Below, one piece after another: positions 49,578 to 54,876 of a DNA stretch of 64,000 bases. The stretch is taken from contig SLJK01000032.1 in the NCBI GenBank assembly GCA_007135125.1, positions 16,237 through 80,236 on the forward strand, written 5' to 3'. Source of the stretch: Syntrophomonadaceae bacterium (GTDB lineage: Bacteria > Bacillota > Dethiobacteria > DTU022 > UBA8154). A program made the position numbers and the translations under genes. Under the pieces are notes generated by a model. The model searched no databases. It was not told where the DNA came from and saw only the letters and a list, made by a program, of their open reading frames with translations. Position 1 is the first letter of the stretch, and each line of letters opens with the position of its first letter.

Positions 49578-50075
49578 ATGGTTTTGTGCCAGTGCCAGGA
49601 AGCGGCAACTTCTGTGGAAGAGAACTTTGAGTATGAGAAAGTAGAAAGTCTGTTGCAGGATTACCTGGATAAGAAGGGGGTCATGGTCCCCATTTTACAG
49701 GCAATCCAGGAAGAATTTGGCTACCTCCCACGACCAGCCCTGGAATATGTGGCAAAAAGACTGCGTATACCGGTGAGCAAGGTTTTTGGGGTAGCCACTT
49801 TTTATGCGCAATTTCATCTTGAACCCAGGGGTGAAAATATTATCCGGCTTTGTCGTGGAACTGCTTGTCACGTCAGGGGAGTAGCTAAAGTAGCTGACAA
49901 GATGCAGGAGCATCTTGGTGTCGATGTGGGTGGTACTACGCCAGATATGAAATTTACTTATGAAGAGGTGGCTTGTATTGGTGCGTGTGGCTTAGCGCCG
50001 GTAATGATGATCAACGACCGGACCTTTGGAAAGTTGGAGCCGGATAAATTAAAGGGTATCCTGGAGCAGTTTTAA
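49578..50075 (+). CDS. NuoE/FdsG-like [2Fe-2S] thioredoxin-fold subunit of NAD-linked formate dehydrogenase
   Basis: …LCRGTACHVRG… …ACIGACGLAPVM… carries the four-Cys 2Fe-2S motif of NuoE/HndA. Confidence 0.85.
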   Translation: MVLCQCQEAATSVEENFEYEKVESLLQDYLDKKGVMVPILQAIQEEFGYLPRPALEYVAKRLRIPVSKVFGVATFYAQFHLEPRGENIIRLCRGTACHVRGVAKVADKMQEHLGVDVGGTTPDMKFTYEEVACIGACGLAPVMMINDRTFGKLEPDKLKGILEQF

Positions 50076-50123
50076 TTTGCCCGGCAGAGATTGAAATGTA
50101 TGCAATAAGGGGAGGGACGTTAG

Positions 50124-50303
50124 ATGGAAAGGTTTATAGATCCTTGCTGTAAGGAATGTTTTAATAGCAAAGATAATCGCTGCGACCAGTTTGTTGAATG
50201 CTGTCTAACAGGACCCCTTTGCCATGATAGCGAAGAATGTGCGGCAAAGAGAAGGGCCATAGTCGAAAAACTTGCTCATAGTCCGGGCTACCTGGAGCAA
50301 TAA
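50124..50303 (+). CDS. hypothetical Cys-rich 59-aa protein (8 Cys) between nuoE- and nuoF-like genes (not in ORF track)
   Basis: MERFIDPCCKECFNSKDNRCDQFVECCLTGPLCHDSEECAAKRRAIVEKLAHSPGYLEQ*. Strong RBS AAGGGGAGGG 6 nt upstream. It ends 28 nt before the GTG start of the NuoF-like gene. Confidence 0.3.
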   Translation: MERFIDPCCKECFNSKDNRCDQFVECCLTGPLCHDSEECAAKRRAIVEKLAHSPGYLEQ

Positions 50304-50331
50304 TCCAAGGCAGGTGGAAGGAGGGAAACAA

Positions 50332-52116: not shown

Positions 52117-52136
52117 CCGGTAAAGGAGGGACTGAA

Positions 52137-54812
52137 ATGCTTTCATTAACAATAAATGGTCATGAAGTAAAAGTGGAACCGGGTAGTACCATCCTGCAGG
52201 CAGCTGAAAAGCTGGGTATATTTATACCGACTTTTTGTTATGATCCGCAGCTTGCCCAGGTGGGTGCTTGTCGTATCTGCGTAGTAGAAGTGGAGAAGGC
52301 CCGTGCTTTGGTGGCTTCTTGTTGCACTCCTGCTGCAGATGGCATGATTGTGCATACGGATAGCGAGCGTGTTTTAGCTGCCCGCCAGGCTAACTTGAGC
52401 CTGCTGTTGGCCAATCACCCCCTGGACTGTCTTACCTGTGAAAAAACTGGCGAGTGTAAGCTGCAGGATTACTGTTACCTCTACGGGGTAGACGAAAGTG
52501 ATTTTGTCGGTGCGCAGAAAGACTATGATCTGGATGATACCAATCCTTTTTATATAAGGGACATGAATAAGTGCATCCTGTGCGGTCTCTGTGTGCGTAT
52601 CTGTTATGATGTTAATGGAGCTGGTGCTATTGAATTTATAAACAGGGGTTTTGACTCTAAGGTTACTCCTGCTTTTGACGATCCGATGGAGTATTCTTCC
52701 TGTGTTTTTTGCGGAATGTGTGTGGATTCCTGTCCTGTAGGTGCTCTTATTCCGAAGGAGAGTATTCGACAGGCCCGTCCCTGGGAACTGAAAAGCGTAA
52801 AAACCATCTGTCCGTACTGTGGCACCGGTTGTGGTTTAGAGCTTTTGGTAAAAGACAACAAAGTAGTTAAGGTTAGGGGAGATTTATCTAATCCTGTTAG
52901 CCGGGGACAGACCTGTGTTAAAGGTCATTTCGGGATCGATTTTCTGGACAGTCCGGACCGTTTAAAGACACCCCTGGTTAAAAAGAACGGTGAATTTAGG
53001 GAGACTACCTGGGAGGATGCCTTGGAGCTGGTAGCTGCCAAACTCAAGGAGGTAAAGCCCACAGAAGTGGCAGGCTTGGCGTCGGCAAGGGCTACCAATG
53101 AAGAAAACTATCTTTTCCAGAAGCTTATCCGGTCACTAGGCAGTAATAGTGTAGACCATTGTGCCCGGCTTTGACATGCACCTACTGTAGCCGGTCTGGC
53201 TACATCTTTTGGCAGCGGTGCTATGACCAACAGTATTAGTGAGATAGAAGATGCTCAAGCGCTTTTTGTCATTGGCTCGAATACTACCGAGACCCATCCC
53301 GTTATCGGTTACAGGATTAAGATGGCAAAAAATAAAGGTGCTTCACTTATCGTAGCCGATCCCAGGCATATTGATTTAGCCGACTATGCTGATGTTTTTT
53401 TGCAGATGCGCCCGGGAACCGACGGGGCACTTCTTAACGGACTATTGAACGTAATTGTAGACGAAAGTCTGATTGACAAGGCTTTTATCGAGAAGAGAAC
53501 AGAGGGTTTCGAGGAGTTAGTGGCAGCTGTTAAAAAGTATACTCCAGAATACGTGGAAGGGATTACGGGCGTGCCTGCCGCTGATATTCGCAAGGCTGCA
53601 AGGTTATATGGCACTGCGGAAAATGCTGCTATCTGTTATACCATGGGTATTACCCAGCATGTGGAAGGGACAAATAATGTGTTGGCTATAGCTAACCTGG
53701 CCATGGCCTCAGGTAACCTGGGCAAACCTCACAGCGGTGTGAATCCTTTAAGGGGACAGAATAATGTCCAGGGGGCCTGTGACATGGGAGCGTTACCTAA
53801 TGTTTTTACCGGTTATCAGCGGGTTGATATGGATGCCCAACGAGAGAAATTTGAGAAGGCTTGGGGAGTCGCTCTTAACTCAACTCCCGGCTATACTGTA
53901 ACCGAGGTTATGGATGCTGTTTTGGATGGGAAGGTTAAATTTATGTATGTTATGGGCGAAAATCCTTCTCTAAGCGATCCTAACCTTCATCATGTGGACG
54001 AAGCTCTGACTGAGGTAGATTTTTTAGTAGTCCAGGATATTTTCTTGACAGAGACAGCACAAAAAGCCGACGTGGTATTACCGGCAGCTGCTTTTGCCGA
54101 AAAAGAAGGCACTTTTGTAAATACTGAACGGCGTGTACAGCTTATCCGCCAGGCGGTTACAGCTCCAGGAGAAGCCAAACCTGACTGGGTAATTCTGACG
54201 GAATTGGCCCAAAGACTTGGATTGCCCTGGAAATATGAAAGCGCAGAAGATGTCTTCCGTGAAATAACGGATCTGACCCCCAGTTATGCCGGGATTAGTT
54301 ATCAGCGCCTGGAAAATGAAGGTGGGCTGCAGTGGCCCTGTCCGGAAGAGGGACACCCCGGTACATCCATCTTGCACAAGGATGTTTTTGCAAAAGGTAA
54401 GGGTGTATTTACGCCGGTAGAGTATTCTCCACCGGCAGAAGAACCATGCCAGGAGTACCCCCTTATTCTCACTACGGGGAGGGACCTTTACCATTATCAC
54501 ACTGGTTCTATGACCAGACAAAGCAAAGGACTTGCCGCGTTCAGGCCGATGGAGAAAGCCCAGGTAAATCCTGAAGATGCGAAAGCATTGGGGCTGGAGG
54601 AAGGTGACGCTATCAAGATTACTTCCAGAAGAGGAGAAGTAACGGCCAGATCTACTATAACAGAAATTGTACCTCCTGGTGTGGTTTTCATGACTTTTCA
54701 CTTTCATGAATCTGCGGTAAACCTTTTAACCTGCTGCGAAGCGATAGATCCCGTGGCCAAGATTCCCGAGCTTAAAACATGTGCTATCAAACTGGAAAAA
54801 GCAGCTTTGTAA
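52137..54812 (+). CDS. fdhA: formate dehydrogenase catalytic subunit, molybdo/tungstopterin, selenocysteine-containing (in-frame UGA at 53172-53174)
   Basis: Track ORFs 52137-53174 and 53223-54812 are in the same frame and bridged by …[17 protein letters not shown]… This is the canonical Sec position of formate dehydrogenase. The N-terminus has 2Fe-2S and 4Fe-4S motifs; the C-terminus has MopB domains. Confidence 0.85.
53176..53221 (+). promoter_or_regulatory. SECIS-like hairpin immediately 3' of the Sec UGA
   Basis: TGTAGCC-GGTCT-GGCTACA (7-bp stem, GGUCU apical loop), nested in outer GCACC…GGTGC pairing. It begins 12 nt after the UGA. Confidence 0.5.
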
Positions 54813-54840
54813 CAGTAATTGAAGCATTGGTAAGTTTATT

Positions 54841-54876
54841 AAGGCCCCCTTCAGTTTAGCAGAGGGGGCCTTTTAG
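54841..54876 (+). terminator. intrinsic terminator after fdhA
   Basis: AAGGCCCCC / GGGGGCCTT stem with a 14-nt loop, then TTTT. Confidence 0.55.

Follow-up and report, generated by a model that had tools for sequence, protein, structure and literature searches.

A predicted selenocysteine-containing formate dehydrogenase of the Bfu type, and its SECIS hairpin, in a Syntrophomonadaceae bacterium

The region 49578-54876 of a 64,000-nucleotide stretch from a Syntrophomonadaceae bacterium (contig SLJK01000032.1 of assembly GCA_007135125.1; the whole stretch is called the window here) is one operon of four plus-strand genes, real and well supported. It encodes a NuoE-like gamma subunit, a 59-residue cysteine-rich protein, a NuoF-like beta subunit and a formate dehydrogenase alpha subunit whose frame is interrupted by a UGA codon. 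Most probably the product is a soluble, cytoplasmic, selenocysteine (Sec)-containing formate dehydrogenase of the Bfu type, coupling formate/CO2 to NAD(H) and ferredoxin. Enzymes of this kind are already known and common, the same arrangement occurring in hundreds of anaerobes; the Bfu classification already predicts the type, and our literature search found Sec formate dehydrogenases with NuoEF-like subunits to be routinely reported for syntroph and acetogen genomes. What the operon offers is a plausible route by which an uncultured organism related to the Syntrophomonadaceae, and probably haloalkaliphilic, may dispose of NADH and reduced ferredoxin as formate, a set of homologues in which selection on a Sec insertion sequence (SECIS) can be seen directly, and a small protein that is its sole little-explored element.

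The UGA codon of the catalytic subunit

The frame of the alpha gene (fdhA or bfuA, 52137..54812, plus strand, 891 codons plus stop) holds exactly one internal stop, a TGA at 53172-53174 on the plus strand, codon 346. The mechanical list of open reading frames (ORFs) gives the gene as two pieces, 52137-53174 and 53223-54812, just as the preliminary description of this region had remarked. Ordinary gene callers also split it, the public calls for one homologous locus (L083) being 346 and 528 residues long; reading the UGA as Sec restores a single 97-kDa catalytic subunit. Its Pfam domains are Fer2_4, NADH-G_4Fe-4S_3, Fer4_Nqo3, Molybdop_Fe4S4, Molybdopterin and Molydop_binding, so that a NuoG-like Fe-S N-terminus and a Mo/W-bis-pyranopterin formate dehydrogenase domain lie within one frame.

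The earlier proposal that the UGA occupies the active-site position of formate dehydrogenase is borne out by pairwise alignment with E. coli FdhH (43% identity over 671 aligned residues). Residue 346 falls opposite U140 of FdhH (ARLUHAP in alpha, ARVUHGP in FdhH), and H347, R539, K262 and V544 fall opposite H141, R333, K44 and V338. The cysteines of the proximal [4Fe-4S] cluster are kept as well, C225, C228, C232 and C260 of alpha corresponding to C8, C11, C15 and C42. FdhH differs from the alpha subunit in lacking the 217-residue NuoG-like Fe-S extension, and its partner is hydrogenase 3 rather than a flavoprotein. Alpha is a member of the Sec-position formate dehydrogenase family FdhH/FdhA (TIGR01591), and we infer that Sec is inserted at codon 346, where it would coordinate the Mo or W of the bis-pyranopterin cofactor. 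Other long ORFs interrupted by TGA were scanned in the window, and the fdhA site was the only credible selenoprotein site among them.

One may ask whether the UGA is simply a genuine stop, leaving either a pseudogene or two separate polypeptides. The part of alpha behind the UGA speaks against this. Residues 347-891 alone pass the TIGR01591 equivalog model for the formate dehydrogenase alpha subunit (713.9 bits, cut-off 666.25), but their match begins only at model position 130, which marks this part as the remainder of a single protein rather than a protein in its own right. A separately initiated downstream protein, which the preliminary description had named as one case that would overturn its reading, also fares poorly: no Shine-Dalgarno sequence is seen upstream of the first ATG past the UGA, at 53223, and the 16 codons from the UGA to this ATG code for conserved formate dehydrogenase residues, the catalytic His among them.

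Selection on the SECIS hairpin

The preliminary description had also noticed a GGUCU-looped hairpin 12 nucleotides (nt) downstream of the UGA, and it is indeed there: GUAGCC-GGUCU-GGCUAC, at 53186-53204, beginning 12 nt past the A of the UGA. Folding 53172-53225 and comparing the result with known SECIS elements, as had been proposed, gave a minimum free energy (MFE) structure in which 53186-53192 pair with 53198-53204 around the loop GGUCU at 53193-53197, with a hairpin energy of -10.5 kcal/mol. The loop criterion for a bacterial SECIS is a GGUC(U) at a fixed distance from the UGA (G23 and U24 in E. coli numbering), and counted from the U of the UGA the GGUCU loop lies at nt 22-26 in the window and in E. 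coli fdhF alike; the stem of fdhF is a different one (GGUUGCA...UGCACC). We therefore mark a SECIS element at 53172..53227 on the plus strand, with 53186-53204 as the SelB-binding apical hairpin, on the basis of the MFE fold, a match to the Rfam SECIS_3 model, the loop register and the covariation described below. By analogy with fdhF, the UGA at 53172 would be recoded because this mRNA hairpin forms 12 nt downstream and recruits SelB carrying Sec-tRNA(Sec).

The resemblance to Rfam SECIS_3 (RF01989) lies in the apical hairpin and its GUCU loop; the lower helix of that model is largely unpaired in the window sequence. With alignments of 66 nt, RNAalifold brought out no more than a part of the apical stem and no conserved lower helix, and because of this no lower SECIS stem is claimed.

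Several results weigh against the reading of the operon as a Sec enzyme with a functional SECIS. The single-sequence fold of the 54 nt is not significant (z = -1.07, with 32 of 200 shuffles at least as stable), and that of 81 nt is likewise not significant (z = +1.16). The SECIS_3 match covers the whole model (positions 1-59, at 53169-53227, E = 1.1e-7 in a local search) at a score of 39.7 bits, under the gathering score of 63, and an Rfam search of the entire window in gathering mode reported no SECIS. In addition, tRNA-Sec, selA, selB and selD, whose presence the preliminary description had wished to see confirmed elsewhere in the genome, were not found in the window or in the flanks that were fetched: the only tRNA genes of the window are two for tRNA-Arg, Pfam scans of essentially all its long ORFs gave no SelA, SelB, SelD or FdhD domain, and searching the window and every fetched locus by tblastn with the SelA, SelB and SelD proteins of E. 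coli gave no match. The absence of sel genes from the 64 kb is also a point in favour of the UGA being a true stop. The nearest species-representative genome to the source is 74% identical.

The same explanation would make of the hairpin an attenuator or terminator, or a mere by-product of the Val-Ala-Gly-Leu-Ala codons that it spans. Both versions have something to recommend them, since a consensus scan marks 53186-53204 as terminator-like, with UCUUUU following the stem, and since those five codons dictate part of the stem, homologues with a Cys codon still having 70.6% of their stem cells paired. As an intrinsic terminator, the hairpin (53186-53213 with the U-run) was considered and rejected: the U-run after the stem, which consists of Ser-Phe codons, is not kept among the homologues, and the frame stays open beyond it.

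Single-sequence folding, being not significant, was replaced by comparative analysis, in which homologues carrying TGA and homologues carrying a Cys codon in one alignment serve as test and control. Scanning a single genome for each species brought up at least 593 relatives, of which the best 80 loci were kept; one locus without a motif match was left out, so that the window and 79 homologous loci make up the classified set of 80. The homologous codon is TGA in 63 of these (the window and 62 loci, spread over many phyla) and TGC or TGT in the other 17. As distinct sequences, the TGA set holds 61-62 and the Cys set 17.

In the TGA set 99.2% of stem cells are paired; the figure for the Cys set is no different from that of its shuffled sequences (mean 70.7%). 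The covariation score of the TGA set is 0.435, compared with 0.158 when shuffled, none of 500 shuffles reaching the observed value and slid partner columns giving at most 0.13, whereas the Cys set scores 0.203 against 0.209 shuffled. Double changes between GC, UA, AU and CG occur in the TGA set at three of the six stem pairs. The two pairs that join wobble positions are especially telling: pair 18-30 (Val and Ala wobble) is paired in 100% of the TGA set, as GC in 34, UA in 13, AU in 8 and CG in 5-6 sequences, and pair 21-27 (Ala and Leu wobble) again in 100%, as CG in 48-49, AU in 10, UA in 2 and GC in 1, while in the Cys set each is paired in only 47%. The loop reads GGUCU in 60 of 62 TGA sequences but in 3 of 17 with Cys, GGT encodes the Gly in 60 of 62 against 5 of 17, and the mean MFE of the hairpin is -11.3 kcal/mol among TGA homologues and -5.9 kcal/mol among Cys homologues. 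Because the TGA set is almost wholly paired and covaries beyond its shuffles, and pairing in the Cys set equals the shuffled value, the SECIS is under selection: synonymous sites maintain its structure only in sequences whose codon is UGA. The recognisable bacterial SECIS of the preliminary description is thus upheld by a stem that covaries only in TGA-bearing homologues, together with the loop register of fdhF.

These results leave the genuine-stop explanation highly improbable. A stop that closes the gene, or a stem that merely follows from the encoded amino acids, does not account for a TGA at the same codon in most of the classified sequences, nor for compensatory synonymous third-position changes confined to them. 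We therefore retain the reading of the UGA as a Sec codon, and the intact SECIS, with its complementary wobble positions as in other TGA lineages, argues indirectly that the Sec machinery is present in this organism.

The Cys-codon variants (L006 at 7045, L007, L011, L022, L030, L031, L033, L034, L042, L044, L053, L055, L058, L067, L071, L079 and L081) are interspersed among the Sec forms. One of them, L006, is from a metagenome-assembled genome (MAG) of a soda-lake Syntrophomonadaceae and has the Cys codon with the small cysteine-rich gene of the operon still present. The decayed SECIS of these variants suggests repeated switches from Sec to Cys within one enzyme family.

Beta and gamma subunits and the proposed coupling to ferredoxin

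The BfuABC family is defined by its BfuBC core (Schut et al. 2022, PMC9304861), and the beta and gamma subunits decide whether the operon belongs there or with the FdsGBA enzymes, to which the preliminary description had likened it. The beta gene (bfuB, nuoF-like, 50332..52116, plus strand, GTG start) encodes 594 residues with a partial N-terminal 2Fe-2S_thioredx domain (residues 5-79), Complex1_51K, SLBB and NADH_4Fe-4S domains and two Fer4 domains (539-590). Its best match among solved chains is the A. mobile NiFe-HydB (7t2r_B), at 907 bits and over the full length (residues 2-591), followed by other chains of BfuB type, HydB 7q4v_B (857 bits), 8a6t_B (801) and NfnB 9n5u_B (789), and by further chains of enzymes described as bifurcating, 9bov_B (767), 8oh5_B (759) and 7p5h_B (725); 7t2r_B, 7q4v_B and 8a6t_B are annotated as hydrogenase beta subunits and 9n5u_B as NfnB. 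Against FdsB the scores are only 384-430 bits (6tg9_B 384, 6vw7_B 430), and these alignments stop at residue 519, short of the ferredoxin domain, beta running 75 residues past their end. Over residues 2-592 the cysteine motifs of beta are all conserved with respect to 7t2r_B and 7q4v_B, namely the N-terminal C-x4-C...C-x3-C, the CPAxxC and both CxxCxxCxxxC.

The gamma gene (bfuC, nuoE-like, 49578..50075, plus strand) encodes a 165-residue protein (PF01257, 176 bits) expected to carry a thioredoxin-like [2Fe-2S] cluster, C1. Its best PDB chains are HydC 8a6t_C (184 bits) and 7t2r_C (182); FdsG chains score 87-94 bits (6tg9_G 88.6). The sole recorded occurrence of this protein is a 1,983-bp JGI contig from soda-lake sediment. 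No fdsD or fdsC is present in the operon. By these similarities beta and gamma are of the HydB/HydC (Bfu) type rather than of the FdsB/FdsG type. The alpha subunit is a different matter, since its closest solved chains are 9wxb_B (775 bits), R. capsulatus FdsA 6tg9_A (765 bits, over residues 3-886) and the W-containing 7vw6_A (759 bits). The label "FdsGBA-like" therefore suits alpha but not its two partners. The additional 2Fe-2S and double [4Fe-4S] domains of the diaphorase, which the preliminary description had linked to the reversible and possibly electron-confurcating formate dehydrogenases of syntrophs, are what sets bifurcating Bfu enzymes apart, judged both by similarity to PDB chains and by the published family definition, in which the extra clusters of BfuB are missing from homologues that do not bifurcate (R. 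capsulatus Fdh, T. thermophilus Nqo and S. wolfei Hyd; PMC9304861).

Within the family, "Type 1 Fdh-Bfu" is the best label for this formate dehydrogenase operon. In Type 1 the pterin site lies within BfuA, the example being Carboxydothermus hydrogenoformans, whose BfuB falls in clade 49, a clade that groups the A. mobile NiFe-HydB with Fdh enzymes of Firmicutes (PMC9304861). The operon shares with Type 1 a NuoE-like BfuC, a BfuB with both extra domains and a BfuA with a C-terminal pterin domain, and its beta subunit is most similar to the A. mobile NiFe-HydB, a member of clade 49. The same BfuBC core is found in FdhF2-HylABC of Gottschalkia (Clostridium) acidurici, a W- and Se-containing Type 3 Fdh-Bfu that bifurcates formate electrons to NAD+ and ferredoxin and is the only purified example cited (PMC9304861). 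Unlike the window enzyme, FdhF2-HylABC has its pterin site on a separate FdhF2, and HylA (its BfuA) has no catalytic domain.

The FdsGBA(D) enzymes of R. capsulatus and C. necator (6tg9/6tga, 6vw7) resemble the window enzyme in being soluble and cytoplasmic and in combining a NuoG-like N-terminus and a bis-molybdopterin guanine dinucleotide domain with NuoE/NuoF-like partners. They differ in the C-terminal ferredoxin domain of the window beta subunit and in the fdsD and fdsC genes that this operon is without. The Fds enzymes have an active-site Cys where the window enzyme is predicted to have Sec. Fds does not bifurcate (PMC9304861).

In the proposed enzyme, beta and gamma make up a complete BfuBC core with FMN, the B1 [4Fe-4S] and C1 [2Fe-2S] clusters, an N-terminal [2Fe-2S] cluster and a C-terminal, ferredoxin-docking domain with two [4Fe-4S] clusters. 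In Bfu enzymes the B1-FMN-C1 "flavobicluster" is the site of bifurcation, C1 swinging to B3/B4 of the C-terminal domain of BfuB, clusters that deliver electrons to ferredoxin, while FMN passes electrons to NAD+ (Li et al. 2025, PMC11829005). In the window enzyme, the NuoG-like Fe-S chain of alpha would conduct electrons between the pterin site and this flavoprotein. By homology, the enzyme would work by flavin-based electron bifurcation, with the reaction formate + NAD+ + oxidised ferredoxin <-> CO2 + NADH + reduced ferredoxin.

A simpler enzyme must be weighed here, an FdsGBA-like formate dehydrogenase linked to NAD(P)H and independent of ferredoxin, in which the extra Fe-S domains of beta would be structural or an internal wire. 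The closeness of alpha to the non-bifurcating FdsA type (9wxb_B, 6tg9_A) is what such an enzyme would be expected to display. Moreover, Type 1 Fdh-Bfu enzymes are predicted, and none had been characterised biochemically as of 2022 (PMC9304861); we found no biochemical or structural characterisation of the class in the literature, and for this reason the proposed ferredoxin coupling is one of homology only. Cofactor assignments in Bfu enzymes have also been repeatedly revised, with Zn taking the place of clusters (PMC11829005), so motifs are no guarantee of function. Two further points count against the preferred reading as a whole: nucleotide specificity and metal are not readable from the sequence, and neither fdhD nor any other pterin-maturation gene lies next to the operon, whose neighbours by Pfam encode a cation-diffusion-facilitator (CDF) transporter, an enoyl-CoA hydratase and a DUF362 protein. 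Against the ferredoxin-independent enzyme stand the similarity of beta and gamma to proven bifurcating subunits, about twice that to FdsB and FdsG, the full-length match of beta including its C-terminal ferredoxin domain, and the fact that the domains by which the known non-bifurcating homologues fall short are exactly these. We consider this alternative unlikely, though a good deal less so than a genuine stop at the UGA, and prefer a Bfu-type enzyme that couples to ferredoxin.

With regard to direction, genes for a thiolase, an SDR, an acyl-CoA ligase and an enoyl-CoA hydratase lie near the operon, and the nearest relatives are Syntrophomonadaceae and Bacillota MAGs from soda lakes. Because of this gene context and the Syntrophomonadaceae relatives, formate production is likely: an anaerobe that oxidises fatty acids would run the enzyme in the confurcating direction, NADH and reduced ferredoxin together reducing CO2 to formate.

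The CCxxC gene, operon signals and genomic surroundings

The three genes of the preliminary description, gamma, beta and alpha, lie where it had placed them, but it overlooked a fourth, a standalone gene of 59 codons between gamma and beta (50124..50303, plus strand). Its Cys-rich product scores 51 bits, above the cut-off of 45, with the curated NCBIfam model NF040902 (NuoF_pre_CCxxC, "CCxxC motif-containing NuoF prefix domain"). The intergenic gaps within the operon are short, and a Shine-Dalgarno sequence of the GGAGG type precedes all four real starts: AAGGAGG before the nuoE-like gene, a strong GGGGAGGG before the CCxxC gene, and GGAAGGAGGG before the GTG at 50332, which as the start of beta also agrees with the N-termini of homologues. 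A strong intrinsic terminator closes the operon at 54841..54874 on the plus strand, where a hairpin AAGGCCCCCU...AGGGGGCCUU (-20.8 kcal/mol, z = -4.2, none of 200 shuffles as stable) precedes UUUU; its position agrees with the end coordinate, 54876, of the region as first described.

The CCxxC protein has no Pfam match. It is rare: among 1.84 billion representatives, searched exhaustively with a profile, only 49 proteins match, and a word-based homologue search found 2 clusters only. A gene for it stands at the same operon position in L002 (3984-4163), L003 (1253-1432) and L006 (~3983-4162), with 59-79% identity, and is also present in L083 (10001-10180), standalone in each. The differences between the window gene and those of its relatives lie mostly in third codon positions (33-35 of 44-57), and this excess therefore indicates purifying selection on the protein. 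Near-invariant in the family are C8, C9, C12, C20, C26, C33, H34 and C39, seven Cys and one His that would be enough for one or two metal sites. A PDB profile search gave nothing meaningful and we found no solved structure; the AlphaFold2 model is of low confidence (mean pLDDT, the per-residue confidence score, 57.8), too low for a fold search, and a literature search for "CCxxC" with "NuoF" found no paper.

In L009 (4013-4195) the CCxxC domain is fused in frame to the N-terminus of the NuoF-like protein, and among the 49 profile matches it forms the N-terminal prefix of the NuoF-like proteins P0041, P0045, P0048 and P0030. The CCxxC protein is probably a detached N-terminal metal-binding extension of beta, and the fusions suggest that it may bind the N-terminal domain of this subunit. 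In Bfu enzymes the N-terminal thioredoxin-like domain of BfuB belongs to a mobile "tripod" that forms the ferredoxin-binding site. With this in mind one may speculate, and we do so tentatively, that the CCxxC protein is a stoichiometric fourth subunit that binds metal, docks on the thioredoxin-like domain of BfuB and adds a further site, Fe-S or Zn, by which the low-potential branch is tuned or gated. If so, flavin-based bifurcation would have an accessory element not described before, albeit one of a small Fdh-type Bfu lineage only.

Operons of other relatives differ from that of the window at this point. Set against Type 1 Fdh-Bfu, the window operon has the standalone CCxxC gene as an extra, and it is without hisK-like or hydD-like genes such as those of L021 and L073. 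Elsewhere the gap between nuoE and nuoF holds a gene for a histidine-kinase-like ATPase, a gene for a thioredoxin-like 2Fe-2S ferredoxin of ~120 residues, or both (L021 3141-4062, L073 1810-2789, L019 3737-4108, L037 3557-3928 and L076 1241-1609), and these inserts resemble hisK and hydD of HydABC operons. Since the inserts differ, the slot is a variable accessory position.

The DUF362/4Fe-4S protein and the CDF transporter are encoded directly upstream of the operon (47333-49423, plus strand). For the transporter the best NCBIfam match is MamB-like, at 219 bits, under the cut-off of 350. It is syntenic in the closest relatives, L002 (1268-3315), L003 (6-614) and L006 (2234-3103), whereas a full-length DUF362 homologue is found in L002 only. 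A link of these genes to metal supply is possible.

Farther from the operon, a cluster resembling phenylphosphate carboxylase occupies 913-6610 on the plus strand. It consists of a PucR/GAF regulator (913-2856), two genes for UbiD-family decarboxylases (2928-4370 and 4632-5999) with a small Phenyl_P_gamma gene lying between these (4288-4641), and a gene for a UbiX-type flavoprotein (5996-6610), a composition suggesting that some phenolic compound is carboxylated or decarboxylated anaerobically. A TRAP transporter operon lies at 23680-27940 on the minus strand, its DctM and DctQ genes standing between two genes for DctP solute-binding proteins. The window also encodes a BCCT betaine/choline/carnitine transporter (31283-32941, plus strand), which fits an osmoadapted, soda-lake origin. 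Finally, at 59657-62313 on the plus strand, a GATase_2 protein adjoins a Glu_synthase protein with an N-terminal 4Fe-4S dicluster, a pair that looks like the split, archaeal-type arrangement of glutamate synthase.

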